From the NCBI GenBank assembly GCA_934122275.1, contig CAKOWI010000001.1, forward strand, positions 64,726 to 128,725: 64,000 nt of DNA. The letters run 5' to 3'. Each line of letters begins with the position of its first letter. The stretch's first letter is position 1. Source of the stretch: an uncultured Bacilli bacterium. GTDB taxonomy: Bacteria > Bacillota_I > Bacilli_A > RF39 > UBA660. The translations under genes and the position numbers were made by a program. This document shows positions 8,860-25,635 of the stretch, one piece after another. The notes under the pieces are model-generated. The model made no database searches, was not told the DNA's origin, and saw only the letters and a program-made list of their open reading frames with translations.

Positions 8860-9351
8860 TCATAAACATTCATATTCTTTTATACTTAATATCATATTAA
8901 TTACTTCATTTATAACTAACTTTTTATTTTCCATTCTACTCCCTTTAGTAGCCTCTACTTTAGAGTTATAATACCTATTATTATCTTTATCATATATAGA
9001 AATAAATACTATGTTATCTTCTCCGTAAGGATTATTTTTGTCCACTTTGTTTAACTTACCAGTAATTCCAACTCCTAAGTTACTGTTTGCAAACTTTGCT
9101 ATATTATAACTCATTTCATTTGCTGTTTGAATACTATAAACAGAGTATTTATCTATTATATCCTTTGATACACCCATCTTGATTTTATATTCATTTGAAT
9201 AAGTTACCGCACTAAACTTAATTATATCAGATGCACCTTCTATATTAGTAATAGCATTAGCTACTCCACCACCAGTGCAAGATTCCATCGTTGATATCGT
9301 TTTATTATTTTCTTTTAGTTTTTCCACCAAGTATTTTGCATCCATTTTCAT
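8860..9351 (-). CDS. pncC: nicotinamide-nucleotide amidohydrolase (CinA C-terminal / PncC domain)
   Basis: 163 aa. N-terminal LVEKLKENNKTISTMESCTGGG matches the PncC signature (..ESCTGG..). Its start overlaps the upstream gene by 47 nt. Confidence 0.8.
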   Translation of the reverse strand: MKMDAKYLVEKLKENNKTISTMESCTGGGVANAITNIEGASDIIKFSAVTYSNEYKIKMGVSKDIIDKYSVYSIQTANEMSYNIAKFANSNLGVGITGKLNKVDKNNPYGEDNIVFISIYDKDNNRYYNSKVEATKGSRMENKKLVINEVINMILSIKEYECL

Positions 9352-10194: not shown

Positions 10195-10755
10195 TTACAT
10201 ATATAAGCCTTTTTCCTTTATATATTCTAACACAAAGTTATCTATATAACGATTATTTTTGCTTAGTTTATTATTTTTAATCATGTTTCTAATCATTGTA
10301 GAAGATACATCTAAAATAGGTAAATCATATACGATTTTATAATTTTCTATTTTATATTTTTTTACATAGCATTTAATATTTATATCGCCTCTGTTTATTA
10401 TAATAAGTTCATGCTTTAATAAGTTCTTATAATCGTGCCATTTGTTAAAATTTACTATATTATCTGCTCCAATAATTAGTGAATAACAATTATTATCCAT
10501 TGATAAGTCATCAAAGATTAAAGAAGTATACGTATAATTATTATGTTTTTGATCTATAATGATGTTTTTATTTTTATACATCTTAAGCATATTTATTCTG
10601 TCATTTGTACTTATTAGGTCGTTTTTATTCCAATAATTACCAGTTGGAATTATAAGAACCTTATCTACGTATTTATTTTCAATTAAATGATTAACTATTT
10701 TAATATGTCCTTTATGTACCGGATTAAAACTTCCTACGTATACTCCTATTTTCAT
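10195..10755 (-). CDS. nadD: nicotinate-nucleotide adenylyltransferase
   Basis: 186 aa with GSFNPVHKGH (the GxFxPxHxGH nucleotidyltransferase motif) and a C-terminal SST.IR motif (VSSTMIRN). Confidence 0.9.
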   Translation of the reverse strand: MKIGVYVGSFNPVHKGHIKIVNHLIENKYVDKVLIIPTGNYWNKNDLISTNDRINMLKMYKNKNIIIDQKHNNYTYTSLIFDDLSMDNNCYSLIIGADNIVNFNKWHDYKNLLKHELIIINRGDINIKCYVKKYKIENYKIVYDLPILDVSSTMIRNMIKNNKLSKNNRYIDNFVLEYIKEKGLYM

Positions 10756-10757
10756 AA

Positions 10758-11525
10758 TTAGATGCTCCTTTTATATGTTGGAATGTTAAACTTATGCAAA
10801 TTATTATTATGAAGTTTTTCTATCTTTTTTCTTGTTGTTTCATCAACTTTCTTTTTATCTTCCATATAATCTGCAATATCGCTATATTTAACTCCTATTT
10901 TATCCTCATCAGTTTGATTAGATAATCCATCACTTGGTGCTTTATAAAGCACTTTTTCTGGTACTTTTAAATACTTTCCAATTTTAATTACTTCTTCAAC
11001 CGTAAAATCTGCAATTGGTGAAATATCGTGAACTGAATCCCCACCTTTAGTAAAGTATCCAACGTATAATTCACATTTATTTGAAGTGCCCGCAACTATA
11101 TATGGTTTTCCTTTTATGCTTGTATAAAGTGCTGCTAAGTAATATAAAGTAGTCATTCTAAGTCTTGGTTTAGCATTTATATCACTGTTTTTAGTTTCAT
11201 CACTATTAAATTTTCCTAATTTATCTGCTTCCTTTTTTAATGCATCAAAGGTACTTGTAATATCCATGTTAACTAGTTCAAATCCATAATAGTCGCTAAT
11301 TAATTTTGCGTCAGACTTATCCTCTTCATTTGAATGGCAAGGCATTGTAACTCCTAATACATTTTCCTTTCCAAGTGCTTTTGTAAATAATGCTGATACA
11401 ACAGCACTATCTTTACCACCTGAAATACCAATAACGGCACCTTTCAAATTATTTTCCTTATAATAGTTTCTAATAAACTTAATTATGTTATTTGTTTCTC
11501 TTTTAACATCAAATTCTTTTTTCAT
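10758..11525 (-). CDS. nadE: NH3-dependent NAD+ synthetase
   Basis: 255 aa with the PP-loop GISGGKDSAV (SGGxDS). Confidence 0.9.
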   Translation of the reverse strand: MKKEFDVKRETNNIIKFIRNYYKENNLKGAVIGISGGKDSAVVSALFTKALGKENVLGVTMPCHSNEEDKSDAKLISDYYGFELVNMDITSTFDALKKEADKLGKFNSDETKNSDINAKPRLRMTTLYYLAALYTSIKGKPYIVAGTSNKCELYVGYFTKGGDSVHDISPIADFTVEEVIKIGKYLKVPEKVLYKAPSDGLSNQTDEDKIGVKYSDIADYMEDKKKVDETTRKKIEKLHNNNLHKFNIPTYKRSI

Positions 11526-11529
11526 CTTT

Positions 11530-12126
11530 TTATCTTCCCTTCTTTATATATTTTTTAGCTCTATTAAGTGCAATTATCGCATTACAGCCTTCAATGTAAT
11601 TCATATCAACAAGTTCTAGAGCCTCATCATAAGTGCATTCAAAATATTTTATATATTCGCCTTCATCTAGGTTTTGATTTTTAAGCCACCTGCACCCGGT
11701 TGCAAGAAACGTTTCATTATATGCTGAAGAGCATCCCATATCCTGATAAAAACCGCCCATATTAGTTAACTTATCTGGAACTAAGCCTGTTTCTTCTTCT
11801 AACTCCCTTAATGCAGCAACATAAGAATCTTCACCATCTTCTATGTATCCAGCTGGAACACCTATCCCAACAGTTCTTTTAGAAAACACTCTAGGTTCAA
11901 CGGTTAATACAACGTTATTATCAGATGTAACAGGTAGTATTATTGCAGCACTACCATCTTTATTATTTTTAAGTATCTTTTCTCTAGTTATTATTTTATC
12001 GTTATTTAAACGGCACCTATAAACTTCGCTTCTAATAAACTTAGGTTCTTTAGTAAGTTTTTCTTTTTTTATTGTTTTTAAACTATCAATTATTTTTTCT
12101 AACTCTTCTATTTTTTCTTTTCTCAT
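11530..12126 (-). CDS. NUDIX hydrolase, probable ADP-ribose pyrophosphatase
   Basis: 198 aa with a complete Nudix box GYIEDGEDSYVAALRELEEETGL, located in the NAD operon. Confidence 0.75.
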   Translation of the reverse strand: MRKEKIEELEKIIDSLKTIKKEKLTKEPKFIRSEVYRCRLNNDKIITREKILKNNKDGSAAIILPVTSDNNVVLTVEPRVFSKRTVGIGVPAGYIEDGEDSYVAALRELEEETGLVPDKLTNMGGFYQDMGCSSAYNETFLATGCRWLKNQNLDEGEYIKYFECTYDEALELVDMNYIEGCNAIIALNRAKKYIKKGR

Positions 12127-13610
12127 TTTTTAGCACCTAAACTTTTAGCATATCCACTGTTTTCTATTGCAGTTTCACTAACCTTTCTAGTTGCATCATA
12201 AAGCATATACTCTTTTAACTCTCTTTCCTTTTCACTTAAATCAACATAATATGTATGAGGATTAGAAATGTCAGTTATTCTATCAGTTAAAGTTTCAAAC
12301 TCGCTATCACAATATCTTTTCCTTTCTTCTATGCTAGGAATATTATAAACTAACTTACCATCTTTAAATATTGGAACCTGTAATTCTCTTACGTAATAAT
12401 CTTCAATTTCCGTTTTCTTCCATGGATCTTTATCACTAACTAAAGTATATTTATCAAGAGGAATTTTCTCATCACTAGTTGCTATTACATCTCCTAAAAC
12501 TTTTTGTGTATCCGCATCATAAAACCTATATACCTTCTTGTATCCCGGGTTAGTAGTTTTAACCGTGTCTCCAGATACTTTTACCTTTGGTAATATTTTT
12601 CCATCTTTTTCTATTGCAACTAATTTATATACGCCGCCTACTCTTTCCTTTGCTGCCGCAATATTATCTCCAGCACCAATAGAATCTATTTTTGCTCCTT
12701 TATTTAAGTAATCTTTTATACTATATTCATTAAGACCGTTGGATAAACAAATCTTTGCATCATTAAAGCCTGCATAATCAAGCATTTCTCTAGCTGCTTT
12801 TGATAAATAAATTAAGTCACCTGAATCTATTCTTATTCCTTTTAATTTATAACCATTAGGTATTAAATACTCTTTTGCAACACGAATTGCATTTGGAATA
12901 CCACTTTTTAAAGTATCATAAGTATCAACTAAGAATACACAGTTATCAGGATTACTTTTAGCATATGCCATAAACGCTTCATATTCCGTATCAAAAGCCT
13001 CAATCATACTATGTGCCATTGTTCCCATTGCTGGGATGTTATACTCTTTAGCAGCATATACGTTTGACGTTCCAACACATCCTCCGATGTATGCATACTT
13101 ACTTGCTTCGTTAGCTGATGATGTACCTCTTGCTCTTCTTGCTCCAAACTCCATTACTGGAATGTTTTTAGCTTCGTTTGTAATTCTTTTCGCAGCAGTT
13201 GTAACTAAAGATGCATGATTGAAGTGTGCTAGTATTGCTGTTTCAATTATTTGTGCTTCTATTATAGGAGCTCTAACCGTAATTACTGGTTCATTTGGAA
13301 ATACAGGAGTACCATCTAAAACAGCACTTATATCACCCGTAAATTTCAAATTCTTAAGGTATTTTAAGAATTCTTCACTAAGGCCTTCCTTTCTTAAATA
13401 GTCTATGTCTTCATCAGTGAATTTAAAGTTTTTAATATACTCTATTATGTTATCAAGACCATTTGATATAGTGTATCCTCCTTTAAATGGATTTGCTCTA
13501 AAAAACACATCAAAGTATGCTATATCATCTTTCTTTCCATTTTCAAAATAAGTTTGTGACATTGTAAGTTCATAAAAATCAGTCACCATAGTTTCGTTAT
13601 TATTTTTCAT
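12123..13610 (-). CDS. pncB: nicotinate phosphoribosyltransferase
   Basis: 495 aa. N-terminal TDFYELTMSQTYF and the central MEFGARRARG block are typical of Firmicute NAPRTase. Confidence 0.9.
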   Translation of the reverse strand: MKNNNETMVTDFYELTMSQTYFENGKKDDIAYFDVFFRANPFKGGYTISNGLDNIIEYIKNFKFTDEDIDYLRKEGLSEEFLKYLKNLKFTGDISAVLDGTPVFPNEPVITVRAPIIEAQIIETAILAHFNHASLVTTAAKRITNEAKNIPVMEFGARRARGTSSANEASKYAYIGGCVGTSNVYAAKEYNIPAMGTMAHSMIEAFDTEYEAFMAYAKSNPDNCVFLVDTYDTLKSGIPNAIRVAKEYLIPNGYKLKGIRIDSGDLIYLSKAAREMLDYAGFNDAKICLSNGLNEYSIKDYLNKGAKIDSIGAGDNIAAAKERVGGVYKLVAIEKDGKILPKVKVSGDTVKTTNPGYKKVYRFYDADTQKVLGDVIATSDEKIPLDKYTLVSDKDPWKKTEIEDYYVRELQVPIFKDGKLVYNIPSIEERKRYCDSEFETLTDRITDISNPHTYYVDLSEKERELKEYMLYDATRKVSETAIENSGYAKSLGAKK

Positions 13611-13683
13611 TATTATCGTCCCTTCTTTTTAACATTTTATTAATACCAGATTATATTTTTTTAAGACCTATTTTTGGTCCTTT

Positions 13684-14265
13684 CTATTTATATTTTTTTA
13701 ATATTTTTACGCCAGCTTGACCCATAAGTTTATAAGCCATACTGTTATACTCATCTCTATTATGATTTATAGCATCATAAGTATCACAAGCATTAGTTGG
13801 TACTATAACTTTAACATTCATATCATTTTCATCAAAGTAATTTACAAGTGGTATAGCAAGATTCATAACACATATATCAGTACATCCTCCAGCTAACACC
13901 ACTTCCTTTAAGTTTTTCATACCACTTATATCACTCATAAAATTAGGAGCAAAAATGGATGATGTTGAATTTTTCTTATAAACGTTATCTTCATCTACGT
14001 ACCTATAAAATTCATCTACGATTAATGCTTCACTAGTACCTTCTATACAATGTTCAGGAAATTTTAGAAATTCCTTACTATTTTTATGGTGAGATTCTTT
14101 TATAAAAATTACTTTATCATCATTTTTTATAAATTTTTCTATCAGGCTTTCTATCTCTGGTATTAATGCTTTCATATAAGGTGTATGCATAACCCCTTCC
14201 TTTGTAAAGCCATTAACCATATCAACAACAATTAACATTTTTTCAATATCTTCCGCTCTCTTCAT
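13684..14265 (-). CDS. pncA: isochorismatase-family hydrolase, probable nicotinamidase
   Basis: 193 aa with LIVVDMVNGF (Asp), a conserved Lys region and the catalytic Cys in AGGCTDICV. It is the first gene of the NAD salvage operon. Confidence 0.75.
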   Translation of the reverse strand: MKRAEDIEKMLIVVDMVNGFTKEGVMHTPYMKALIPEIESLIEKFIKNDDKVIFIKESHHKNSKEFLKFPEHCIEGTSEALIVDEFYRYVDEDNVYKKNSTSSIFAPNFMSDISGMKNLKEVVLAGGCTDICVMNLAIPLVNYFDENDMNVKVIVPTNACDTYDAINHNRDEYNSMAYKLMGQAGVKILKKYK

Positions 14266-14280
14266 AATTTCTCCCTTCTT

Positions 14281-14307
14281 ATGTTATTATCATTTTATTA
14301 ATAACAT
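14281..14307. promoter_or_regulatory. palindromic candidate operator 1 (ATGTTATTA-N9-TAATAACAT) in the pncA leader
   Basis: Perfect 9-bp inverted repeat immediately upstream of the pncA RBS. It shares a TGTTA...TAACA core with operator 2. Confidence 0.45.
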
Positions 14308-14336
14308 AGTTTAAAAAATAATTCAGACTTTTTCTC

Positions 14337-14367
14337 ATCTGTTACTAACATTATATTAATAACAGAT
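14337..14367. promoter_or_regulatory. palindromic candidate operator 2 (ATCTGTTA-N15-TAACAGAT) overlapping the pncA promoter
   Basis: Perfect 8-bp inverted repeat spanning the spacer and -10 of the promoter below. Confidence 0.45.
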
Positions 14368-14378
14368 AAATTTGTCAA
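14350..14378 (-). promoter_or_regulatory. consensus sigma-A promoter of the NAD salvage operon
   Basis: On the minus strand: TTGACA (14378-14373), a 17-nt spacer, then TATAAT (14355-14350). Confidence 0.65.
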
Positions 14379-14419
14379 CTATTTTTTGAAAAAAACTTAC
14401 AATAAAGTAAGTCTTCTTG

Positions 14420-14980
14420 TTAATTATATCCTTTTTTCTTATATTCATCAGATAATTCTTTAAATCTATTGTAATGAACTACCTCTCTTTGTCTAAGCCA
14501 TAACAGTGGACCTAGTATATCAGGATCATTAGTCTGATTAATTAAATTCTCATATACTGCTCGTGCTTTTTGTTCTGCTGCCAAATCTTCTTCTAAATCT
14601 GCTATTGGATCACCTGTTGTAGATATATAGTTTGCTGTCCAAGAATCACCATTTGAATTGCATGGAAATAACGATAAACCATGTTCTGTATAATGACCCA
14701 AAAGACCTGCTTTATCTAATTCTTCTATTGTTGCTCCTTTCATCATTTGATGTACCATTGTACATATCATTTCAACGTGTGCAAGTTCTTCTGTACCTAT
14801 ATCATTTAATAACGCACGTCCCTTACTATCTGGCATTGTATATCTTTGATTTAAATATCTAAGTGCTGCACCAAGTTCTCCTTGAGCACCACCATATTGA
14901 CTAATTACTGCTTTAGCCATCTTTAAATTTTTATTTCTAATATTTATTGGATACTGTAACTTTTTAGAGTACTTCCACAT
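14420..14980 (-). CDS. cotJC: spore coat protein CotJC (manganese catalase family)
   Basis: 186 aa. QYGGAQGELGAALRYLNQRY and EELAHVEM match the di-Mn catalase / CotJC signature. Confidence 0.9.
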   Translation of the reverse strand: MWKYSKKLQYPINIRNKNLKMAKAVISQYGGAQGELGAALRYLNQRYTMPDSKGRALLNDIGTEELAHVEMICTMVHQMMKGATIEELDKAGLLGHYTEHGLSLFPCNSNGDSWTANYISTTGDPIADLEEDLAAEQKARAVYENLINQTNDPDILGPLLWLRQREVVHYNRFKELSDEYKKKGYN

Positions 14981-14994
14981 AAAAATTCCCCCTT

Positions 14995-15477
14995 TTACTC
15001 ATTCCAAGGCCAAGGTTCATTTATCCAAGACCATGGAGTCATATTTAGTCCACTATCATCAGATAAATCTATTGGACCATATCTTTTTTCATACTCATCA
15101 GTTAATTTTTTAGCATCATTATTATACTTATTGTACAAATTTATTGCATATGAATCATTAGGATGAGTATCTAAATATAAATTTATATCATGAGCCATAA
15201 AACACATCTCTTGCACTTTATATAGCATCATATCTCTTTCATTTGTAATATTAGGTTTTATATAAGTCATATTCTTATATGGCTCGTATTTATTTGATTC
15301 TATATTTCCCTTTAAAAAGCCTTCACTAGGATTTAAAAAATTAGTTTGATTCACATTTTCGTTTTGATTTACCATTGATTGCATATTATTTAAATCAAAA
15401 CTTTTTTGTACTGCCGGCATCATATATGTTCTTATTAAATTACTACCATCCATATAATTAAAATAGTCTTCTCTCAT
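14995..15477 (-). CDS. cotJB: spore coat protein CotJB with a CotJA-like N-terminal extension
   Basis: 160 aa. The C-terminal half (MMLYKVQEMCFMAHDINLYLDTHPND..YNKY..L..EYEKRYGP) is a CotJB domain. The N-terminal segment NPSEGFLKGNIESNKYEPYKN resembles the CotJA motif (eAL..GT.F..L..PY). Confidence 0.75.
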   Translation of the reverse strand: MREDYFNYMDGSNLIRTYMMPAVQKSFDLNNMQSMVNQNENVNQTNFLNPSEGFLKGNIESNKYEPYKNMTYIKPNITNERDMMLYKVQEMCFMAHDINLYLDTHPNDSYAINLYNKYNNDAKKLTDEYEKRYGPIDLSDDSGLNMTPWSWINEPWPWNE

Positions 15478-15554
15478 TATTTTTACCTCCTAGCCTATTA
15501 TATACATCTATAGACATAGTGCATGGGCTTAAAGCATATAAAAAGATGAATTAA

Positions 15555-16586
15555 TTATTCACCTTCATTATATTCATCATAAATATTTCCAAGTATTTCT
15601 TCAACTGCATCTTCAAGAGTTATAATACCAACGGTTTTATCATCTTTAACTACTATTTTCATTTGAATGTGTTCCTTTTGCATATCTGCAAAAACACCAT
15701 CTATTTTTTCTTTATGATCTATTTTTCTAGCTTCAAATAATATTTTTTTCAAATCAAATTCACCATTATTCTTCTTATATATTATGTAGTTTTTAACATT
15801 AAATATTCCTATTATATTATTTGAGTCTCCATTATAAACTGGATATCTAGTAAACTTAGAATTCTTAATTATATTAAGTATTTTTTTAGGACTATCATTT
15901 GCATTAAGCATAACACATTCACTAATTGGAGTCATAACTTTATCAACTGATGTATCATTAAATTTAAATATATTAAATATATATTCTTGTTCTTTTTTTT
16001 CAATTATACCATCTCTTGTTCCAGTTAATATTATCCTTTTTATATCTTCTTCAGTAAAGTTTTCTTCTCTTTCTTCTATTTTAAGTATCTTACAAATAAA
16101 GTTAGTTGAAACCGAAAGTAATTTTATTAAAGGGTAAAATATAATTTGCATTGCACTTATTAAATTAACTGAAAAACTAGCTACTCTAAATGGATTAGAT
16201 AATGCTATTTTCTTTGGAACTAATTCTCCAAATACTAAAGTAAAATAAGATAATACAACAGTTATAATAATAACTAGAAAAGTTGATGTAAAGCTTTTAC
16301 TTATTATTAAGAATCCTGATTCCATTATTTTATCAGCAAATGTTGATGCTGCAAAAGCACTAGATAAAAAGCCAGCTAAAGTTATTCCAACTTGTATTGT
16401 GGATAAAAAATTACTTGGATCATTTATTATTTTCCTAATTTTCTTAGCATTCTTTTTCTTTCTTTTTACCATTTTATCAATTTCATACTTTTCAAGAGAT
16501 ATAAATGCAATTTCACTTGCAGATAATATTCCATTTAATAATATAAGTATAATTAATAATAATATTTTGTAAAACATTATAGACAC
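15555..16586 (-). CDS. DUF21/CNNM transmembrane + CBS-pair protein (HlyC/CorC-type, lacks the CorC C-terminal domain)
   Basis: 343 aa with an N-terminal 4-TM DUF21 region (SASEIAFISL) and a CBS pair (VDKVMTPI..., ..IGIITLEDAVEEILG). Confidence 0.85.
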   Translation of the reverse strand: MSIMFYKILLLIILILLNGILSASEIAFISLEKYEIDKMVKRKKKNAKKIRKIINDPSNFLSTIQVGITLAGFLSSAFAASTFADKIMESGFLIISKSFTSTFLVIIITVVLSYFTLVFGELVPKKIALSNPFRVASFSVNLISAMQIIFYPLIKLLSVSTNFICKILKIEEREENFTEEDIKRIILTGTRDGIIEKKEQEYIFNIFKFNDTSVDKVMTPISECVMLNANDSPKKILNIIKNSKFTRYPVYNGDSNNIIGIFNVKNYIIYKKNNGEFDLKKILFEARKIDHKEKIDGVFADMQKEHIQMKIVVKDDKTVGIITLEDAVEEILGNIYDEYNEGE

Positions 16587-16690
16587 CTCTTAAGTATTTT
16601 ATCACATAAATGTAAATTATTCATTTATATTTTATTATATTCTATATATATAACATATTTGTACGATTTTATTACCTAATATGATTATTT

Positions 16691-16719
16691 TTGTTAATTT
16701 TAATTTAGTATGATATAAT
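16691..16719 (+). promoter_or_regulatory. sigma-A promoter driving the retron ncRNA and RT
   Basis: TTGTTA (16691-16696), a 17-nt spacer, then the extended -10 TGATATAAT (16711-16719). The predicted start falls at about 16725, at the a1 repeat. Confidence 0.6.
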
Positions 16720-16723
16720 AAGA

Positions 16724-16884
16724 ATGCAGTAGTGATTGGAATTATTTTCCTACTTTAACGAGTCGTTAAGGGACTAAATTAATTAAGACGATTAAATAGT
16801 AATACTTCAAAGGACTAACCTACACGTACGTGTAGAAGCTTCGCTTAAGTCCATTTCCATATTACTATATTGTTAGTACTGCAT
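16724..16884 (+). ncRNA. retron msr-msd non-coding RNA (candidate)
   Basis: a1 ATGCAGTA (16724-16731) is the perfect reverse complement of a2 TACTGCAT (16877-16884). There are msr-like hairpins at 16738-16750 and 16755-16769. A long imperfect msd hairpin is formed by 16796-16804 / 16860-16868 and GGACT/AGTCC (16812-16816 / 16848-16852), with the apex palindrome CTACACGTACGTGTAG (16820-16835). It lies directly 5' of a retron-type RT. Confidence 0.6.
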
Positions 16885-16901
16885 ATAAAGGAGGTAGTAA
16901 A

Positions 16902-17849
16902 ATGTGGAAATACATAACAAAAAAAGAATGTAACCTATTTTTACTATCTCTTAACTTATTTAATTGTAAAGAAAAAAAGAAATATATAAAAACTATTTAT
17001 TCTATTAGTAATAACGTAGAAAAAAACTACAAAGTCTATAGAATTAGAAAAAGAAATGGAAAATATAGAACCATATATGAGCCTAACAATATTTTAAAAC
17101 AAATTCAAAAAAGAATTTTATGTAATATACTTAATAATAAGTCAATCTCAAAATATGCCAAAGCATATTATAGAGGAGCTAGTTTAAAAGAAAATGCAGT
17201 TAAACATATTAATAAAGAACTTATCTTAAAACTAGATATTAAAGATTTTTTTGAAAACATAACTTTTTTTAATGTTTATGACTCATCTTTTCCTATAGAA
17301 TACTTTCCTAAATCTGTTGGTATGCTTTTAACTTATTTATGTACTTATAATAATCACTTACCACAAGGTTCACCAACTTCTGCCTATATATCCAATTTAG
17401 TTATGAAAGAATTTGACGATGAAATAGGTTCTTGGTGTGATGAAAACAATATATCATACACAAGATATTCGGATGATATGACTTTTTCTGGTAATTTTAA
17501 TCCTAAATATGTTATAGAGAAAGTTAGAAAAATGTTATATAAACTAGGATTAAGTTTGAATAATGATAAAATACATGTAATAAATAAATCACAAAGTCAA
17601 AGTGTTACTGGAATTGTAGTAAATGAAAGAATCCAAACAAGCAAAAAATATAGAAACAAAATAAGGCAAGAAATATATTATATTAGAAAATTTGGTTTAA
17701 TTTCTCATTTAAAAAGATGTAATATTAATGTTAATTATGAAAAGTATTTAAACTCACTATATAGTAAAATTCTCTATGTTTTACAAATTGATCCAACTAA
17801 TAGCGAATTTATACTATACAAAGAATTTATCAAAGATTTAAAAAGATAA
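16902..17849 (+). CDS. retron-type reverse transcriptase
   Basis: 315 aa. RT motifs LPQGSPTSAYISNL and RYSDDMTFSG (YxDD), plus the retron-specific NAxxH (NAVKH) and VTG (QSVTGIVVNE). RBS AAAGGAGG. No maturase, endonuclease or other fused domain. Confidence 0.85.
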   Translation: MWKYITKKECNLFLLSLNLFNCKEKKKYIKTIYSISNNVEKNYKVYRIRKRNGKYRTIYEPNNILKQIQKRILCNILNNKSISKYAKAYYRGASLKENAVKHINKELILKLDIKDFFENITFFNVYDSSFPIEYFPKSVGMLLTYLCTYNNHLPQGSPTSAYISNLVMKEFDDEIGSWCDENNISYTRYSDDMTFSGNFNPKYVIEKVRKMLYKLGLSLNNDKIHVINKSQSQSVTGIVVNERIQTSKKYRNKIRQEIYYIRKFGLISHLKRCNINVNYEKYLNSLYSKILYVLQIDPTNSEFILYKEFIKDLKR

Positions 17850-17990
17850 CTCTTTTATAATTTTTATTTATGACTATTGGCACTCATTTGAATCATTCTA
17901 TATAAATACTATGTGATTACTTGGAATATATATGAGCACCTATATCCAGGCACAAAAAATAACTTAATAAACAAAATTAATTAATATATT

Positions 17991-18021
17991 AAAAACCCTT
18001 ATTTTATAAGGGTTTATTTTT
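17991..18021. terminator. bidirectional rho-independent terminator
   Basis: Stem AAACCCTTA (17993-18001) / TAAGGGTTT (18007-18015), flanked by an A-run and a T-run. Confidence 0.7.
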
Positions 18022-18024
18022 ATA

Positions 18025-18138
18025 TGGAGCGAATCACATACATGTTACGAACTAAGTTCTCTTTCTAAAAATATTATATATGTATTGTTATTAAATTTCA
18101 ATAGGCATATGGAAAAAAATGCACTTATATAGTATAAT
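18025..18138 (+). repeat. cassette left-end module L1 (tRNA-Gly 3'-end core TGGAGC + conserved promoter region)
   Basis: TGGAGC-N14-TTACGAAC-N6-CTCTTTC-N6-TATTATATA...TTCAA...TATGG...TATAAT. It is collinear with 22323-22438, with the -10 at offset about 108-110 in both copies. Confidence 0.75.
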
Positions 18139-18177
18139 TTTTATAGTTTAAAATTAGTAAAAGTTCGGAGGATATAT

Positions 18178-19599
18178 ATGAAGATAGGAATAGATATAGA
18201 TAATGTTCTATCTAATTTTAATGATGTATTATTAAACGAATATAAGAAACATGATAATGCAATAAATGGCAAAGGTATAGTTCATCAAGATTTATATATT
18301 AGAGATATGTTTAATTGGGATAAAGAATATGAAAAAAATTTTTATAAAGAAAATATTGAGTATTTTGCAAGCCTATTTGAACCGATTGAAGAATGTTCTA
18401 AATATGTAAAATTATTAAAAGAAGAAGGAAATACAATTTATATCATTAGTGGTCGAGATAATGGTGAATATTCTAACCCATATAAAATGACCATTGATTG
18501 GTTAAAAAAATATGATATTGTTTATGATAAATTATTTTTAGTAGATGCTTATAATAGTCATTCAAAAACAGAAATATGTATAGAATACAATATTGATGTA
18601 ATGATAGATGATTCTAAAAGAATGTGTAAGGACATAAAGGATAATGGTATTAGAGCATTACTTATGGATACACCATATAATAGAGATACAAATGAATTTG
18701 AAAGAGTTAATTCATGGAAAGAAATTTATAACAAATTATCTAACAAAAAAATTAATGTGATACTTGATACAGATACTTATAATGAATGTGATGACCAATT
18801 TGCATTAGCCTATTTAATTAAGTCACAAGATATGTTTAATATTGAGGCAATTACAGTAGCACCATATTCTCATACAAAAAGAGATGTAAAAGTAAAAGAT
18901 GGACAAGAATTAAGTTATAATGAAATTTTAAAGATATGTAATTGGTTAAACTTTGATACAAATAATAAGGTGTTTAAAGGTTCAATGGATTACATTCAAA
19001 ACGGTTATGATGAGAAAAATGATGCTGTAAATAAAATTATAGAAATTGCTTTAAAAAATAATAAAACTTATATATTAGGGATTGGTGCTATTACTAATAT
19101 TGCTTTAGCAATAAAAAAAGAACCAAAAATAGTAAACAAAATAGAAATTATTTGGTTAGGTGGCAATGAACTTGGCTACAAAGATAACCTTGAATACAAT
19201 TTTAGACAAGATGTTGAAGCAGTAAAAATAGTATTTGAGTCAAAAGCGAAGTTAATTATACTTCCTTGTAAAAATATTGTTTCAGAATTAAGAATTGATA
19301 TTAATACTTTAAAAAAATATTTAGAAAACAAATCAGAATTGTGTAAGTATTTAATTGAAAGATTTTATAATGATGGATATCATGGAATACAAGAATCAAG
19401 AGTAATATGGGACATAGCTGTTATAGCCTACATGATAAATAAAAATTGGTTTGAAACGAAACAAATAAGTTGTCCAAATATAAGAAAGGATACTTCTTAT
19501 GAAGTGACGGACAATAGACATAGTATTACTTTTGTTACTAAATTGGATAGAGACAAAATATACAAAGATTTATTTGAGAAACTAGGTGAATTGCAATGA
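18178..19599 (+). CDS. fusion protein: HAD/NT5C-type 5'(3')-deoxyribonucleotidase + IUNH-type nucleoside hydrolase
   Basis: 473 aa. N-terminus MKIGIDIDNVLSNF (HAD motif I DxDxV as in NT5C-family deoxyribonucleotidases) with DD later (VMIDDS). The C-terminal half starts VILDTDTYNECDDQFALAYL, which is the nucleoside hydrolase aspartate cluster DxDxxxDD. Confidence 0.75.
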   Translation: MKIGIDIDNVLSNFNDVLLNEYKKHDNAINGKGIVHQDLYIRDMFNWDKEYEKNFYKENIEYFASLFEPIEECSKYVKLLKEEGNTIYIISGRDNGEYSNPYKMTIDWLKKYDIVYDKLFLVDAYNSHSKTEICIEYNIDVMIDDSKRMCKDIKDNGIRALLMDTPYNRDTNEFERVNSWKEIYNKLSNKKINVILDTDTYNECDDQFALAYLIKSQDMFNIEAITVAPYSHTKRDVKVKDGQELSYNEILKICNWLNFDTNNKVFKGSMDYIQNGYDEKNDAVNKIIEIALKNNKTYILGIGAITNIALAIKKEPKIVNKIEIIWLGGNELGYKDNLEYNFRQDVEAVKIVFESKAKLIILPCKNIVSELRIDINTLKKYLENKSELCKYLIERFYNDGYHGIQESRVIWDIAVIAYMINKNWFETKQISCPNIRKDTSYEVTDNRHSITFVTKLDRDKIYKDLFEKLGELQ

Positions 19600-20129
19600 G
19601 CAGAATAACTTTAATAACATATTTTGATGAAAAGCAATTAGATATAATTAGTAAATTTTTAGAAAACATCAATTTGAAAATGTGTAAAGTTCCTTATGGT
19701 ATAAATGATAATAAAAGGTATGAAATTGATAATCTACCATATCATTTTACAATATTTGCAACAGATAAAATAAATCAAAATAAGTTATTAGAAATTGCAA
19801 AAAACACAAAAATGAAAAAAATAAAATTAAAAATTAATAAAGTAAAAATCGAAAATATTAAAAATGGTAGTTTTATTCTATATTTTGGAATTGAAGATAA
19901 TTGTTTTATGAAAAATCTGCAAAGGAATTTTTATGAAGTAATACCAGAAGAAAAATATAATCCTGACAATTTTAATTTTCATATGACTTTACATATAGAT
20001 AAAAGTTTTAATATAGTAAATAATCTAATTGAAATGATACAATTAAAATTTAAACCATTTTCTATTGAATTTAATAAACTAACATTATATGATTACCCTG
20101 GTGAAATAATTGAAACTATTGAATTTTAA
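19596..20129 (+). CDS. 2H phosphoesterase superfamily protein (LigT/CPDase-like)
   Basis: 177 aa with two HxT/S motifs at the expected spacing (LPYHFTIF and FNFHMTLH). Its start overlaps the upstream stop (ATGA), implying translational coupling. Confidence 0.65.
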   Translation: MSRITLITYFDEKQLDIISKFLENINLKMCKVPYGINDNKRYEIDNLPYHFTIFATDKINQNKLLEIAKNTKMKKIKLKINKVKIENIKNGSFILYFGIEDNCFMKNLQRNFYEVIPEEKYNPDNFNFHMTLHIDKSFNIVNNLIEMIQLKFKPFSIEFNKLTLYDYPGEIIETIEF

Positions 20130-20157
20130 AAAAATATTAGTAAATAAGGTGGTATAA

Positions 20158-20766
20158 ATGAAACTAAATAGTAAAGAAGCAAGAAAGCTTTTAGAAAAAG
20201 AAAGAGTTAATCAAAAAGATGATAGATGGATAGAACACTGTATATCTGTAGGTGATAGTGCTGGAAGAATTGCTAAAGCATTAAGTGAAAATAAAATTAA
20301 TGTGGACATAGATAAAGCAATTACTCTAGGGTATTTACATGATATTGGCAAGTATAATGGAGAGTCACAGGGACATGTTATGAGAGGATATGAATACTTA
20401 AAAAATAAAGGTTATGATGATGAATATGCTAACATCTGTTTGACTCATTCATATTTAAATAATGATGTAGTGTGTACAGCTGGAGGAGTTCCAAATCCAA
20501 ATGATAATACATTTTTAACAAACTTTATAAAAAATCATGAATATACTATAGAAGAAAAAATAATAAATTTATGTGATTTGATGTGTCCACAAGGAAATAA
20601 AGTATTTACAATTGATAAAAGGTTGGTTGATATAATGATTAGAAGAGGCACATATTCTAATACTCAATATCATATTAAAGAAACATATAAATTAAAAGAA
20701 TATTTTGATAATCTGTTAGGATATAATCTGTATGACTTGTTTCCGAAAATAAAAGAAAATTTATAA
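20158..20766 (+). CDS. HD-domain metal-dependent phosphohydrolase
   Basis: 202 aa with H...HD signature residues (IEHCISV ... LGYLHDIGKY ... H..LTHSY). Confidence 0.75.
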   Translation: MKLNSKEARKLLEKERVNQKDDRWIEHCISVGDSAGRIAKALSENKINVDIDKAITLGYLHDIGKYNGESQGHVMRGYEYLKNKGYDDEYANICLTHSYLNNDVVCTAGGVPNPNDNTFLTNFIKNHEYTIEEKIINLCDLMCPQGNKVFTIDKRLVDIMIRRGTYSNTQYHIKETYKLKEYFDNLLGYNLYDLFPKIKENL

Positions 20767-20966
20767 AAGGAATTGGGAACTTCCTATAATAGAATTTGTT
20801 TGTGAGTACGAATTCATTGCTGTCTAGACATAGATTTTATTCCCATATTTTCTAAAAAATCAAAAAGAGGATTAAATTATTTTCGTAATTTTTTCCTCTT
20901 TTTGATATTATTTATTATAAAATAACTCACGAACTTTTAAGCCCGTAAGTTGATTTCAAATGGAGC
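20767..20966 (+). repeat. cassette right-end module R1 (terminator module ending in the TGGAGC core)
   Basis: About 200 bp, collinear with 24127-24332 at roughly 75-80 percent identity by eye (GGGAA.T..CC.ATAAT.GAATTTGT...GAGTAC.GATTCA.TGCTG.CTAGACATAGATTTTA ... ACGAAC..TTAAG.CCGTAAGTTGATTTCAAATGGAGC). It contains the hairpin AAAGAGGA/TCCTCTTT plus a T-run. Confidence 0.8.
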
Positions 20967-21108
20967 GATTGTCGTAGTTATCTACAACTCTTTTTCAATA
21001 ACGAAAGAATACATATAATCTTCCGTTGCTAGATATAATATACCATGTTTTAAGTATTTATGTAATAATTTTTTGTTCATTTTACAATCTTTCGCACAAA
21101 TTTTAATT

Positions 21109-21843
21109 TTATTTATTAGCTATATCTATTAAATTTTCAAAATATCTAACCCTATTATCTAATGTAATTTTTATTTTATTACTATTTATCAATCTGTTTA
21201 TTAAATAAACATACAGTATATCATGTAGATATATGTTTTGTATTAATCTTCCCACTAGTTCGCATATCTTAACTTTACCCATTGATTTTAAAGTGTCTAT
21301 AATATAATCATCATAAAAATCTATTGAAACTGATTTAACATTTCCAGAATCAATCACTCTTAAGTCAGAATTTTCATCAATTAATTTGTTCCAAATATTT
21401 ACATTGTTATTTATTTCTTCATTTGTTAATTTATGCTCTAATTCAGATAAATTTTTTAGTTCTTCTTCTCTCATTACGCTAGGAGATGGATAATCATTAT
21501 TATAATCATCACAATATAGAACATATAATTCATAGTTATAATCTTTTATAATACTGCAAACATATAACATAATTAAATATGAATAAATGTCTTTTCTACC
21601 AGTCCATACTCTTATTTTATTTTTTTGTTTTATGTTATCAATAATAACATTATATTCTTGTTCAAAATTGATACTTTTGTCTTCTAAGCATAATTCTTTT
21701 GGTATACTAATTTTATGATTTCTACAATTAGATAAATCCCCTACATTAAATAAGACATTTAGCATTAGCATATTATCATTAAGTTTACTGTTTTTCATAG
21801 TATAGTAACAAGAATTTCCAAATATTATTTCCAAAGTATTCAT
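21109..21843 (-). CDS. DUF1835-like protein, unknown function
   Basis: 244 aa. The N-terminus LEIIFGNSCYYTMKNS resembles the DUF1835 start (hIvFG.SaaGsLK). This is a weak call from memory of the family. Confidence 0.4.
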   Translation of the reverse strand: MNTLEIIFGNSCYYTMKNSKLNDNMLMLNVLFNVGDLSNCRNHKISIPKELCLEDKSINFEQEYNVIIDNIKQKNKIRVWTGRKDIYSYLIMLYVCSIIKDYNYELYVLYCDDYNNDYPSPSVMREEELKNLSELEHKLTNEEINNNVNIWNKLIDENSDLRVIDSGNVKSVSIDFYDDYIIDTLKSMGKVKICELVGRLIQNIYLHDILYVYLINRLINSNKIKITLDNRVRYFENLIDIANK

Positions 21844-22322
21844 CTTTTAACAACTCCAATCATTCTCATAAATTACTATTTGTGCATCACTTTTATAATC
21901 TAATTATACTACTTTTTGATGTGTTTTAATAGTATCATTAACATATGTAATCTTCTAGTTCTACTAATTTAATTTTTTTACTTAAATTACCTATGTAAAT
22001 ATCAGTAGAGTAATTAAATGCTAGAAAAGTAGTATCATTTATAATGATTTTATGCGATTCTAGGTAGTTCAAATTAGTGTTGTTAATACGTTTGATACTA
22101 CATACTACCATTGATAATCTTTGATGTAGTGTGGCAAAACTCACAAATAAACTCTATACGTTGTTTTAAACTACTTTCCATTTCTAACTTTTGTGTAGTA
22201 AACTTTATCATAAAATGCACCATCCTTTCTTGGTTAATTCTTCTGTAAACACAAAAAATCAACCTGAACGGATTGATATATATGTTAAGTTTAAACTCTA
22301 AAAGTTCGAACAGATTCCTCAA

Positions 22323-22438
22323 TGGAGCATTTAAGCTACAGCTTACGAACCACAATGCTCTCTTTCCAAATTTATTATATAGTAATCCCCATATTTTTTC
22401 AAGGAAGTATGGGAATTTTTTGTATTTTATTGTATAAT
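22323..22438 (+). repeat. cassette left-end module L3 (TGGAGC core + conserved promoter region)
   Basis: TGGAGC-N14-TTACGAAC-N7-CTCTTTC-N6-TATTATATA...TTCAA...TATGG...TGTATAAT, homologous to 18025-18138. Confidence 0.75.
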
Positions 22439-22468
22439 AATTTCAAGAAATATCTTGGAGGTAAAAAC

Positions 22469-23272
22469 ATGACTGATGAAGCATTAGAAATCACAAAAGA
22501 AGTAGCAAAAGTTGTTGCAAAAGATTTATATAATGATGGATTAAAAGGAACTGTAACTCAAACAGGAGCAATAGTAGAATCTATTGTTGGATTATTCAAT
22601 AATGTAGTTTTTTATCCAGTAAAAAAAGCAAATGCATTATTTAAATATAAACTAGAAGATTTCAAAAATGATTTAGAAACTAGACTGAATTCTCTTCCTG
22701 ACGATAAGATAGTAGAACCCGATTTAATGGTAGCAGGTCCTGCATTAGAATCATTAAAATATACATATGATAAAGAAGAACTTAGGAATATGTATTTAAA
22801 TTTACTAGTATCTTCTATGAACAAAGATACTAAGGATAAAGCACATCCTAGTTATGTAGAAATAATTAAGCAATTAACGCCACTAGATGCTAAAGTTTTT
22901 AAAAGATTAAATGATGTCGGACAGGTTGCTTGTGCACATCCAGTTTTAAAACTTGATAATACAAATAAAGTTTACGTTTCTGCATATCCTAATTATATAG
23001 TAGAAGAATTACTTGATTTAGGTGATGAATTTGATATATCAGCATCTGTTTCTAATTTAATAAGACTAGGTTTAATTCATCATGAAGATAACAGTATAAA
23101 TGGTTATAATTATGAAAAATTTAAAAGTTTCGATATTATTATTAGAAATAAGCAAAAGCTAGATAACCTGAATAATTCTGAAGGAAATGGAATAACTACC
23201 AGTGTAGAAATTCAAAAGCAAGTTATTATGAAAAATAATTTTGGTGAACGCTTTGCTGATACTTGCTTATAA
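22469..23272 (+). CDS. Abi-alpha (DUF4393)-like abortive-infection family protein
   Basis: 267 aa from the ATG preceded by GGAGG. The pattern AKDLYNDGLKG..., PALESLKYTYDKEELRNMYLNLLVSSMN...AHPSYVEIIKQLTPLDAKVFKRL matches my recollection of the Abi_alpha consensus (..eelr..fanLLa......hPsf.eil.qLsp.eA..L). The track ORF start at 22322 lies in the repeat module and is rejected. Confidence 0.55.
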   Translation: MTDEALEITKEVAKVVAKDLYNDGLKGTVTQTGAIVESIVGLFNNVVFYPVKKANALFKYKLEDFKNDLETRLNSLPDDKIVEPDLMVAGPALESLKYTYDKEELRNMYLNLLVSSMNKDTKDKAHPSYVEIIKQLTPLDAKVFKRLNDVGQVACAHPVLKLDNTNKVYVSAYPNYIVEELLDLGDEFDISASVSNLIRLGLIHHEDNSINGYNYEKFKSFDIIIRNKQKLDNLNNSEGNGITTSVEIQKQVIMKNNFGERFADTCL

Positions 23273-23289
23273 AAAAGGGAGGCTGAATA

Positions 23290-24126
23290 ATGGACAAAAT
23301 AGCAATAATATCAGACATACATGGTAATTTAGAAGCATTAAAATCAGTATTAGATGACGTTAAAGAAAGAAATATAAATAGAATATTTTGTCTTGGGGAT
23401 ATAATTGCAAAAGGAACTCATCAACAAGAGTGTGTTGATTTAGTTAAAGAAAATTGTGATGTTATGCTTAGAGGTAATTGTGATGAATATTTTACTAGTG
23501 ATATTGATTTATTAACTAAAACACAATCAGAAGTAGATAGAATATTTTGGAACAAAAATAAATTAAATGAAGAAACTAGAAAATATTTAAGTAATTTACC
23601 TTATTGTTATGAATTTTATTTGAGTGGTAGACTTGTAAGATTAGTTCATGCACATCCTGAAAAAATAGATAAATTTGTAGGAAATATAGATAAAATTGAT
23701 AGATTGTATGAATTGTTTTTGACAAGTTCTAATACGATTTCTGATAAGAAAGCTGATGTTTTAATATATGGTCATATACATACTCCATATATTCAAAAAA
23801 TATATAATAGAACGATTATAAATACAGGCTCTGTTGGTAATGCTATTGATGTCTTTAGAAATGATGAAAAAGATGGAGATGTTAAAAATACAACTGTAGC
23901 TAATTATTTAATTTTATCTGGTAACTTTAATTCTAAAAATATTGATGAAAAAATTTCGTATGAACTAGTATGTGTACCTTATGATATAGATATGGAATTA
24001 AATGATAATGATGACAATATTGAATTTGAATCATATGAAGAAGAAATTAGAAAAGGCAAATACAGGGATATGGCGAAGATTTATAAAAGTTTTGAATTAA
24101 GAGGTATAGACAAGGATAAAATATAG
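23290..24126 (+). CDS. calcineurin-like metallophosphoesterase
   Basis: 278 aa with motifs ISDIHGN, LGDIIAKG, RGNCD and YGHIHTP. RBS GGGAGG. Confidence 0.8.
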   Translation: MDKIAIISDIHGNLEALKSVLDDVKERNINRIFCLGDIIAKGTHQQECVDLVKENCDVMLRGNCDEYFTSDIDLLTKTQSEVDRIFWNKNKLNEETRKYLSNLPYCYEFYLSGRLVRLVHAHPEKIDKFVGNIDKIDRLYELFLTSSNTISDKKADVLIYGHIHTPYIQKIYNRTIINTGSVGNAIDVFRNDEKDGDVKNTTVANYLILSGNFNSKNIDEKISYELVCVPYDIDMELNDNDDNIEFESYEEEIRKGKYRDMAKIYKSFELRGIDKDKI

Positions 24127-24332
24127 AAAATAAGGGTATGGGAATTGCCATAATGGAATTTGTACGGGAGTACAGATTCAGTGCTGGCTAGACATAGATT
24201 TTACTTTCAAATTTAAAAATATAAAAAAAGAAGATTAAATTATTTTGATAATTTTTCCCTCTTTTTTTATAGTATTTATATAAAATAAAAACTTACGAAC
24301 AATTAAGTCCGTAAGTTGATTTCAAATGGAGC
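24127..24332 (+). repeat. cassette right-end module R3, abutting and including the tRNA-Gly 3' end
   Basis: Homologous to 20767-20966. It ends in TGGAGC, which here is the genuine 3' end (GCTCCA) of tRNA-Gly. Confidence 0.8.
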
Positions 24333-24400
24333 AGGTGAGGAGAATCGAACTCCCGTATCAAGCTTGGAAGGCTTGGGTTCTACCATTAAACTACACCTGC
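24327..24400 (-). tRNA. tRNA-Gly (anticodon TCC), CCA encoded
   Basis: Reverse complement: GCAGGTG acceptor, anticodon arm CAAGC-CTTCCAA-GCTTG, T-arm GGGAG-TTCGATT-CTCCT, then CACCTGC-T-CCA. Confidence 0.9.
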
Positions 24401-24546
24401 ATCAAGTAGGCATTATTAATTATACCTATTTTTGATTTAAAGTCAATACTTTTCGAATTATTTCAAATATTTTTTGAACATAAATCCTATCTTCGTCATT
24501 GTCCCCCAGCATTAATATATTTTTAATATTAACATATATACACAAT

Positions 24547-25635
24547 TTATTCTTGATATCTAGATATATTTAAAATTATTCCCATACTAATTAATGTAAT
24601 TATTAAACTAGAGCCACCATAAGAGAAAAATGGAAGTGTAACACCAGTTACTGGAACTAAACCTACTACTACAGATAAGTTAAGTAATGTTTGAAAAGAT
24701 AACTGAAATATAATACCAAACACTAAGAATTTAGCAAATATATCTGGTGCTTTAATCGAAATTTTAATACTTCTTAAAATTATTATTAAAAATAATATTG
24801 CAACTGTTATTATTCCTAAAATTCCTAACTCTTCAGATATAATTGAAAATATAAAGTCAGTTTGAGGTTCAGGTAAATAGAAATGTTTTTGAATGGATTT
24901 ACCAAAACCAAGACCAAATAATCCACCAGGACCTATAGCATATAGAGATTGTATAGCTTGAAATCCAGTTCCTAAAGGATCACTCCACGGGTTTAAAAAA
25001 GAAACTATTCTCTCCATTCTATATGGTGCCATTATTATAAGAATAACTGCCCCTACTATACCTATCATTCCAAGCTTAATAAAGAAAGAAAAATTAACGC
25101 CAGATATAAAAAGCATAGCTACTATTGTTAATACTAAAATTGTTCCAGTTCCAAAATCTGGTTGTAACATAATAAGTCCAAAAGTAAACATAGTTACAAG
25201 TAAAATTGGAAAAGCTCCCTTTGTTACCGTTTTCATTTGTTTTGGATTATTATATATATATTTACTAGTAAATATTATTAGTGCAAGTTTCATAAACTCA
25301 CTAGGTTGAACACCAAGTCCACCTATTCCAAACCAGCTTCTAGAACCGTTTCTTACTGTACCTATTCCCGGTATTAAAACTAAAACCAATAAAATTAAGC
25401 AAATAAATAGTATAGTATTTGATTTTTTTAGATAATAAGTATATGGTATCTTACTTACAATTATCATTAATACAATACCCATTAAAAAAAAGGCACTTTG
25501 CATTATAACGTAATGCAGTTTATCATTAAACTTATACTCTGCCCACACACTAGATGCAGAATAAATCATTATTATTCCATATACACAAATTAAAAATACG
25601 GTTATTATTAATTTTATATCCAGTTTATTTTTCAA
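24547..25635 (-). CDS. FtsW/RodA/SpoVE-family peptidoglycan glycosyltransferase
   Basis: 362 aa, about 10 TM segments. Motifs QPSEFMKL, PDFGT and LPVTGVTLPFFSYGGSS. Confidence 0.85.
   Translation of the reverse strand: MKNKLDIKLIITVFLICVYGIIMIYSASSVWAEYKFNDKLHYVIMQSAFFLMGIVLMIIVSKIPYTYYLKKSNTILFICLILLVLVLIPGIGTVRNGSRSWFGIGGLGVQPSEFMKLALIIFTSKYIYNNPKQMKTVTKGAFPILLVTMFTFGLIMLQPDFGTGTILVLTIVAMLFISGVNFSFFIKLGMIGIVGAVILIIMAPYRMERIVSFLNPWSDPLGTGFQAIQSLYAIGPGGLFGLGFGKSIQKHFYLPEPQTDFIFSIISEELGILGIITVAILFLIIILRSIKISIKAPDIFAKFLVFGIIFQLSFQTLLNLSVVVGLVPVTGVTLPFFSYGGSSLIITLISMGIILNISRYQE

Follow-up and report, generated by a model that had tools for sequence, protein, structure and literature searches.

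What is a retron that carries a reverse transcriptase (RT) gene and a readable msr-msd RNA, with no effector gene beside them? The question is raised by a 64,000-nt stretch of DNA from an uncultured Bacilli bacterium (hereafter the window), in which one compact unit at 16691-18015 holds a promoter, the non-coding RNA (ncRNA), the RT gene and a terminator. The original prediction for this locus took every retron defence system described to date to be made up of ncRNA, RT and effector, found the missing effector unusual, and left two ways out: a separately transcribed operon downstream supplies it, or the retron has none. Our analysis indicates that the unit is very probably a stand-alone retron cassette, complete and kept by selection, that belongs to the Ec107-like branch in retron RT clade 2, a placement that rests on profile scores, BLASTP and the plan of the RNA. 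The second way out was the right one, yet the lack of an effector is a known hallmark of Ec107-like retrons. The three-part rule overlooks the stand-alone Ec107 branch of clade 2 and clade 11 (PMC7736814), and what seemed unusual is the defining trait of a known group (PMC7736814 and, in the part of that preprint drawn on here, bioRxiv 10.64898/2026.05.14.725207).

Re-reading the sequence from 16300 to 18300 recovered the predicted promoter, repeats, hairpins and RT motifs, each in its place. The features of the cassette are as follows.

16691-18015, + strand: complete retron cassette, with promoter, msr-msd RNA, RT gene and terminator in one 1.3-kb unit
16691-16719, + strand: putative promoter, with -35 box TTGTTA (16691-16696), 17-nt spacer and extended -10 box TGATATAAT (16711-16719), from sequence and a scan
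16724-16731, + strand: inverted repeat a1, 5' end of the msr, ATGCAGTA, perfect 8-nt complement of a2
16732, + strand: predicted branching (priming) G, first unpaired base past a1 in the minimum free energy (MFE) fold
16738-16750, + strand: msr hairpin 1, GGAA...UUCC, from the fold, one pair with compensatory changes
16753-16771, + strand: msr hairpin 2, CUUUAACG-AGU-CGUUAAGG, invariant apex CGAGUCG at 16759-16765, from fold and alignment
16790-16876, + strand: msd, predicted template of the msDNA (its ends likewise predicted), from the fold, four pairs with compensatory changes
16796-16804 and 16860-16868, + strand: long msd stem, ATAGTAATA with TATTACTAT, from sequence and fold
16812-16816 and 16848-16852, + strand: msd stem, GGACT with AGTCC, from sequence and fold
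16820-16835, + strand: msd apex hairpin, palindrome CTACACGTACGTGTAG, from sequence and fold
16837-16847, + strand: small second arm of the msd, from the fold
16877-16884, + strand: inverted repeat a2, TACTGCAT, exact reverse complement of a1
16888-16894, + strand: ribosome-binding site (RBS) AAGGAGG of the RT gene, from sequence, GGAGGT invariant in 29 relatives
16902-17849, + strand: retron RT, 315 aa, no fused domain, from Pfam, PADLOC and BLASTP
17993-18015, unstranded: bidirectional intrinsic terminator, preceded by an A-run and followed by a T-run, end of the retron unit, from a scan

The reverse transcriptase and its RNA

Profile typing places the protein among retron RTs. It matched the PADLOC model RT_Ec107-like at 4.1e-126 (418 bits, model positions 2-306 of 307), with RT_III-A as second profile (345 bits, 9e-104), and the best 25 PADLOC matches listed for it are all retron RT models. 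Its best 14 PDB matches are also all retron RTs, led by Ec86 (1.5e-33, residues 25-262). Pfam found RVT_1 alone (1e-21), which together with the full coverage of the PADLOC RT model bears out the claim that no further domain is fused. Using the retron motif definition of PMC7736814, the RT carries YSDD, NAVKH (NAxxH) and SVTGIVVN (VTG), and the aligned relatives keep the NA..H, VTG and Y.DD core; the S of YSDD falls below the 95% conservation threshold.

Ec107 itself, also named Retron-Eco5, was located in complete Escherichia coli genomes through its site, the junction of slmA (ttk) and pyrE, which is interrupted in 382 of 5,425 genomes. The gap in strain 18-4 (L094 2893-4195) holds a lone 319-aa RT in a 1.3-kb cassette; its RefSeq label is merely 'reverse transcriptase family protein'. 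This RT scores 437 bits on RT_Ec107-like, its best profile as for the window RT, and aligns with the latter at 40% identity over 309 aa (BLASTP, E 5e-85), C-terminal region included. Both elements consist of an ncRNA and an RT of ~315-319 aa alone, spanning ~1.3 kb with no linked effector (PMC7736814 for Ec107). Comparing the RNA fold with that of the nearest typed retron, as had been proposed, showed the same plan: an a1/a2 pairing, an unpaired G after a1, a pair of msr hairpins of which the second is closed by CG-AGU-CG, and a long msd. The hosts differ, Gammaproteobacteria against a low-GC spore-forming Firmicute, as do the a1/a2 repeats (17 bp in E. coli, 8 bp in the window) and the msd, which is unrelated in sequence and would give an msDNA of ~80-90 nt, compared with 107 nt for Ec107. 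Of the two, only Ec107 has been shown by experiment to make msDNA.

The RNA at 16724-16884 folds at -44.7 kcal/mol, against -27.5 +/- 3.5 kcal/mol for dinucleotide shuffles (z = -4.9, with 0 of 200 shuffles as good), hence its structure goes beyond chance. The MFE fold gives exactly the a1/a2 pairing, the two msr hairpins and the long msd stem. Most of the predicted architecture stood as described: a1 and a2 pair perfectly, and the msd stem and its apex palindrome were confirmed on the sequence and reproduced by the fold. Of the two msr hairpins the first was placed correctly, while the second, given as 16755-16769, has a stem two pairs longer on each side.

Conservation of this RNA was followed through relatives of the RT, found by scanning one genome per species (36 loci). 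Thirty-three of these loci, at 63-78% identity, belong to uncultured gut Bacilli, 'Mollicutes', metagenome-assembled genomes (MAGs) of Erysipelotrichaceae and Clostridium sp. CAG:302, and the other three are from Lachnospiraceae (42-46% identity). Every close relative with enough upstream sequence (~30 gut Bacilli species) has the same RNA between an extended -10 box and the RBS of the RT gene. The consensus fold of an alignment of 29 loci is identical to the single-sequence fold, with standard pairs in 99.2% of cells, and compensatory changes occur in eight of 35 pairs: three of the seven consensus pairs of a1/a2, four msd stem pairs and a single pair of msr hairpin 1. Slid controls gave 0-3 compensatory pairs, and none of 500 shuffles reached the observed value. 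Furthermore, one Lachnospiraceae locus (L034) has a wholly different yet perfectly complementary 11-nt a1/a2. The repeats and hairpins are therefore conserved and covarying beside RT homologues, a check named by the original prediction, and with the profile typing of the RT this upholds its call of a retron with a canonical msr/msd RNA.

Individual positions are also strongly constrained. The base directly after a1 is G in 28 of the 29 aligned relatives, in L034 and in E. coli Ec107, and G16734 is invariant (29/29), which makes it a second candidate branching base beside the unpaired G16732. The CGAGUCG apex of msr hairpin 2 is identical in the window, the gut Bacilli, the Lachnospiraceae loci L033 and L034 and E. 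coli Ec107, with the stems of L033 and L034 otherwise rebuilt with G-C pairs around it. This hairpin pattern occurs once per RT-bearing locus, always ~150 nt 5' of the RT, and we infer that CGAGUCG is the best candidate for an element recognised by the RT. By the order of its elements and the identical apex, the RNA is assigned to the Ec107-like structural type.

The msd apex hairpin, CUACAC...GUGUAG, is near-invariant across gut Bacilli (alignment columns 125-140, equal to window 16820-16835). Its CACAC...GUGUG core is kept in L033 and L034, despite RT identities of just 42-46%, and the pattern is found once in the 64-kb window. The near-invariance amounts to a constraint on the msd at the level of sequence, which is unexpected for defence retrons. 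Mean ncRNA identity among the relatives is 76.6%, against 61% at third codon positions of the RT.

Signals for expression frame the cassette. The predicted near-consensus promoter was confirmed by sequence and by a 4.8-kb scan (16400-21200), where it ranks second among promoter-like sites and is the sole match of at least 10/12 with a TG extension; most relatives have an extended -10 box at an equal short distance 5' of a1. Likewise, the bidirectional terminator predicted at 17991-18021 was found at 17993-18015 and is also present in the contig of a sister strain (L066). The longest ATG-started open reading frames (ORFs) between the RT stop and this terminator (17850-17990) have 10-11 codons.

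Several observations weigh against a complete, stand-alone Ec107-like retron. An Rfam scan of 14000-22000 (E <= 1) returned two chance small RNA matches and none on the ncRNA, the nearest NCBIfam retron model, retron_St85_RT, stayed below its cut-off (209 vs 235 bits), and one relative (L009) has A where the others have G after a1. One neighbour of the RT does recur, a 288-aa AAA_15/AAA_21 ATPase directly upstream in seven of 35 loci. Finally, the effector search described below covered 64 kb of this genome and 8 kb on either side of the RT in relatives, so an unlinked effector would lie outside its reach.

The search for an effector and the upstream ATPase

When the ORFs up to 8 kb on either side of the RT were clustered all against all, for the window together with 35 related loci, no cluster proved common to the family. 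Immediate neighbours in the relatives include a MurC-type ligase, ABC transporters, LexA, a 3-methyladenine glycosylase, a GNAT acetyltransferase, LysR regulators, TspO, two-component systems, relaxases and recombinases, all of them unrelated housekeeping or mobile-element genes. PADLOC detected no retron effector among 65 window ORFs, matching only PDC-S47, a homing endonuclease, mad6 and MkoA (the PDC-S47 match, 1.5e-59, holds at the level of the window, with no ORF assigned), and no recurring retron effector among 97 RT neighbours in the relatives. The same searches gave no match of the phosphoribosyltransferase (PRTase) type in the window and none recurring beside the relatives' RTs. Inspecting the neighbourhoods of RT homologues for a gene that co-varies with the RT, the test proposed at the outset, thus yielded no consistent partner. 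As predicted, no effector is co-transcribed; the terminator ends the unit, and no gene is linked to it across the 35 loci. Retron types I-XIII are tripartite, with either a linked effector gene or a fused effector domain; this cassette has neither.

The recurring ATPase gives rise to a rival reading, according to which the ancestral system comprised ATPase, ncRNA and RT, the PtuA/AriA-like ATPase being an effector that was lost in the lineage of the window. It is encoded on the same strand ~210 nt 5' of the RT with only the ncRNA between, both in the seven species loci and in the abundant contexts P0063 and P0169; the loci that carry it do not form a single RT sub-clade, and its divergence is correlated with that of the RT (r = 0.94). 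Close homologues, however, do without the retron: at 75-81% identity there is no RT nearby and DUF5680 or HD/YjbR/NUDIX genes follow instead, and at 83% identity the RT lies 2.5 kb off behind three unrelated genes. The ATPase also evolves more slowly than the RT (87-90% vs 74-78% identity), as a host gene kept in synteny would. It is missing from the entire window and from the fetched stretches of sister contigs, yet the RT there is still under purifying selection. We therefore consider an ATPase effector quite unlikely. The gene looks like a host gene in conserved synteny rather than a retron component, and the correlated divergence then becomes evidence that the retron is co-inherited with host genes.

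This ATPase (our cluster C2) was also tried as a retron-specific partner and rejected, because close homologues without an RT pair with DUF5680. Four retron-free loci (L081-L084, gene 3501-4376 and the next) encode the 288-aa ATPase and, 2-4 nt on, a DUF5680 protein of ~284 aa, so that ATPase and DUF5680 look like a two-gene module. The ncRNA-RT unit takes the position 3' of the ATPase in the retron-bearing Bacilli, and one locus (L036) has its upstream ATPase gene broken into two ORFs.

Maintenance of the cassette and the downstream island

A second rival holds that the cassette is a relic which lost its effector and drifts without function. Mestre et al. suggest that an ancestral PRTase was lost in the Ec107 branch (PMC7736814), and degenerate relatives exist: the RT is frameshifted in L012, in L029 it is cut short at 240 aa and the msd has lost its second arm, and L009 carries the A at the branching position. 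Selection on the family speaks against drift. The ratio of nonsynonymous to synonymous substitution rates (dN/dS) of the RT is 0.22 for the window against its sister strain and lies at 0.05-0.16 for four further close pairs, which argues against a relic. Conservation extends to all catalytic and retron-specific motifs, and promoter, RBS and RNA structure are kept, with compensatory changes, in ~30 species. A few degenerate copies are as expected in any family, and we regard decay as very unlikely for the window element.

The cassette also has the character of a long-term genome resident. GC content at third codon positions is 13.9% in the RT gene and 10.8-14.8% in host genes, and a search of viral contigs with the RT gave no relatives, only one fragment at 32% identity, hence there is no sign of a phage-borne retron. 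The co-divergence with the adjacent ATPase gene described above points the same way.

The operon at 18178-20766, put forward as a possible source of the effector, encodes a fusion of NT5C and nucleoside hydrolase, a 2H phosphoesterase and an HD hydrolase. As a neighbouring transcription unit it could provide a nucleotide-depleting module analogous to the nucleoside deoxyribosyltransferase (NDT) or PRTase effectors that type II and III retrons use. It lies immediately downstream on the same strand, its enzymes metabolise nucleotides, and L011 has HD or 2H hydrolases directly 3' of its RT, as do L076-L080 and L085 in the vicinity of ATPase C2. What decides the matter is the sister strain, whose RT is 96% identical and whose contig matches window 14389-18040 and 24318-27751 at ~98% DNA identity, with different sequence in between.

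18025-18030, unstranded: TGGAGC, left island junction, a repeat of the 3' end of tRNA-Gly, outside the retron; window and sister strain diverge right after it
18031-24326, unstranded: strain-specific island, 6.3 kb, not part of the retron, from the sister-strain comparison
24327-24400, - strand: tRNA-Gly(tcc), integration target of the island, given as context, from the strain comparison

The variable segment of both strains starts right after TATGGAGC (window 18023-18030) and ends at ATGGAGC, the 3' end of tRNA-Gly(tcc). The island in the window encodes, besides the three operon proteins, DUF1835/DUF3658 and Abi_alpha proteins and a metallophosphatase, whereas the sister strain has a different 4.35-kb element at the site, with HTH_3, a zinc-ribbon protein, Ltp, Mob_Pre and a serine-recombinase fragment. 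A terminator and an island junction thus separate the operon from the RT, and the whole island is replaced by a Mob_Pre/recombinase element beside a nearly identical retron. Across the 35 loci the three operon proteins cluster with no immediate RT neighbour, the lone match being a hydrolase 4.6 kb upstream in L016, and PADLOC gave no retron-effector match for them. Because the operon is strain-specific island cargo at a tRNA-Gly 3' end, it is not the effector; its absence from a strain with the same retron and its lack of recurrence refute that proposal, for which we see only the slimmest chance.

The original prediction had read the sequence after the terminator as a tRNA-Gly 3'-end remnant marking the edge of a cassette array. 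By sequence alone the 6-nt match is not significant (local alignment of 18011-18070 with the tRNA-Gly region, p ~0.15 against shuffles), while the strain comparison shows that it does mark a real island boundary. What it bounds is an island at the 3' end of a tRNA-Gly gene and not an array of cassettes. The ancestral layout is CNNM (-), retron (+), bidirectional terminator, tRNA-Gly (-) and FtsW (-), in which we infer that the terminator would also face the tRNA-Gly 3' end.

The remaining rival, that the RT belongs to another class (group II intron, diversity-generating retroelement (DGR), or abortive infection (Abi), UG or defence-associated (DRT) type) and that the upstream hairpins are not msr/msd, is practically negligible: RVT_1 is generic and Drt2, Drt3a and group II models match weakly, yet at 51-59 bits (group II at 51 bits against a cut-off of 300) compared with 418 bits for RT_Ec107-like, the PADLOC, PDB and NCBIfam matches, the NAxxH and VTG motifs and the alignment with the E. 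coli slmA-pyrE RT all type it as a retron RT, Rfam found no group II intron RNA in 14000-22000 (E <= 1), and no template/variable repeat pair of a DGR was present at 16580-18180, where no direct repeat exceeds 26 nt (85% identity).

Some further observations concern the genes around the retron. The island, bounded by ATGGAGC and without a recombinase gene, may be a small defence island. Its 473-aa fusion of NT5C (5'-deoxynucleotidase) with an inosine-uridine nucleoside hydrolase is unusual, and shares its operon with the 2H phosphoesterase and the HD hydrolase. Elsewhere in the family a mobile-element gene abuts or overlaps the RT stop on the opposite strand (L068-L070 and L072-L075, ~5955-7085, minus strand; L005, 2044-3351; L071, 5955-7262). 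It encodes a 376-aa serine recombinase with a 5-nt overlap in one group of loci, and in L005 and L071 a relaxase, Mob_Pre often being close. Mobilisable elements appear to integrate repeatedly in the sequence immediately 3' of these retrons. Window segments 8055-9265 and 10259-14389 are absent from the sister contig. They hold an NrtR-like NUDIX regulator, CinA/PncC, a NadD-like cytidylyltransferase, NadE, a NUDIX protein, a nicotinate PRTase and isochorismatase/PncA, hence this NAD salvage and ADP-ribose set is strain-variable.

Known stand-alone retrons and a possible mode of action

Our results are in agreement with published descriptions of retrons that lack an effector. Mestre et al. (2020) reported stand-alone (msr-msd)-RT cassettes in the clade 2 branch that includes Ec107 and in clade 11, found an associated PRTase for only two of 59 RTs of the Ec107 branch, and left open whether stand-alone retrons use effectors in trans or have another function (PMC7736814). 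Millman et al. excluded Ec107 from their defence assays, and the text of a retron 'experimental census' paper mentions neither Ec107, Eco5 nor clade 2. The 2026 survey of SPIRE metagenomes, in the part drawn on here, lists clade2_Ec107like, defined with a confidence tier of a hidden Markov model (HMM), as the second most abundant retron group (n = 192), 93% Bacillota and 91% host-associated, with no recurrent accessory module and with the Ec107_like RNA model among those most often detected (bioRxiv 10.64898/2026.05.14.725207). The relatives found here, MAGs of gut Bacilli, Mollicutes and Erysipelotrichaceae without a conserved neighbour, resemble that group, and the window element agrees with its description, as far as that part of the survey gives it, in all respects tested here. 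The cassette is thus a further case of an already described orphan-retron group common in gut Firmicutes, and effector-free retrons have been published before. Compared with the same part of the survey, the strain comparison, the tRNA-Gly island, the CGAGUCG link to E. coli and the dN/dS values are added here.

Type III-A1 retrons are a sister lineage within RT clade 2, with a PRTase-like effector and a winged-helix protein, and RT_III-A is, at 345 bits, the runner-up profile for the window RT. The Ec107 branch shares a node with PRTase-linked RTs (Mestre et al., PMC7736814). The PRTase-like effector adjoins the RT in type III-A, whereas none lies beside the RT in the window or in the relatives examined; the nicotinate PRTase gene at 12123-13610 is a housekeeping NAD-salvage gene on the opposite strand, absent from the sister strain. 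Retron-Eco1 (Ec86, type II-A3) offers the closest RT with a solved structure and would share the general msr/msd priming mechanism with the window element. Ec86, whose RT belongs to clade 9, has an NDT-like effector as its partner, of which the window shows no counterpart.

Following the general retron priming mechanism (summarised in PMC7736814), transcription of the cassette would start at ~16725 and a1 and a2 would pair, closing the RNA. The RT would then dock on the msr hairpins, probably reading the CGAGUCG apex, prime from the 2'-OH of G16732 and copy the msd from ~16876 back to ~16790-16800. The predicted product is a branched msDNA of ~80-90 nt with a Y-tipped hairpin. These steps are drawn by analogy from other retrons, from the transcription start to the msDNA ends. 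The reverse complement of the msd, a predicted msDNA of ~87 nt, does form a Y-tipped hairpin when folded as DNA (-12.0 kcal/mol, z = -3.5).

How an RT-msDNA complex without a linked partner might act can be framed in three ways. It could work with a factor encoded elsewhere in the genome, to which we give an even chance; it may, more tentatively, work on its own and independently of any effector; and some other mode of action is conceivable, if rather doubtful. A possible form of the effector-independent mode, put forward here with similar caution, is that the Ec107-like retrons of gut Bacillota are domesticated, vertically inherited elements without a dedicated protein effector, in which the RT-msDNA particle is itself the functional entity. 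Such a particle could bind a host or phage factor through the sequence-constrained msd hairpin. This proposal is compatible with the lack of a common partner in 35 loci, purifying selection on RT and RNA, host-like codons, co-divergence with a host gene and absence from viral contigs.

Orphan retrons are the one large retron group still without a known function, and this cassette provides a compact natural test case, with 1.3 kb of sequence, its own promoter and terminator, and explicit predictions for the branch point and the msDNA. The sister strain shows that the neighbouring genes are irrelevant to the retron, while the CGAGUCG signature in the RNA ties the gut-Bacillota lineage to the experimentally validated Ec107 of E. 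coli. If an effector-free particle is indeed what these elements make, it would represent a mode of action unlike the toxin-antitoxin logic of all characterised retrons.

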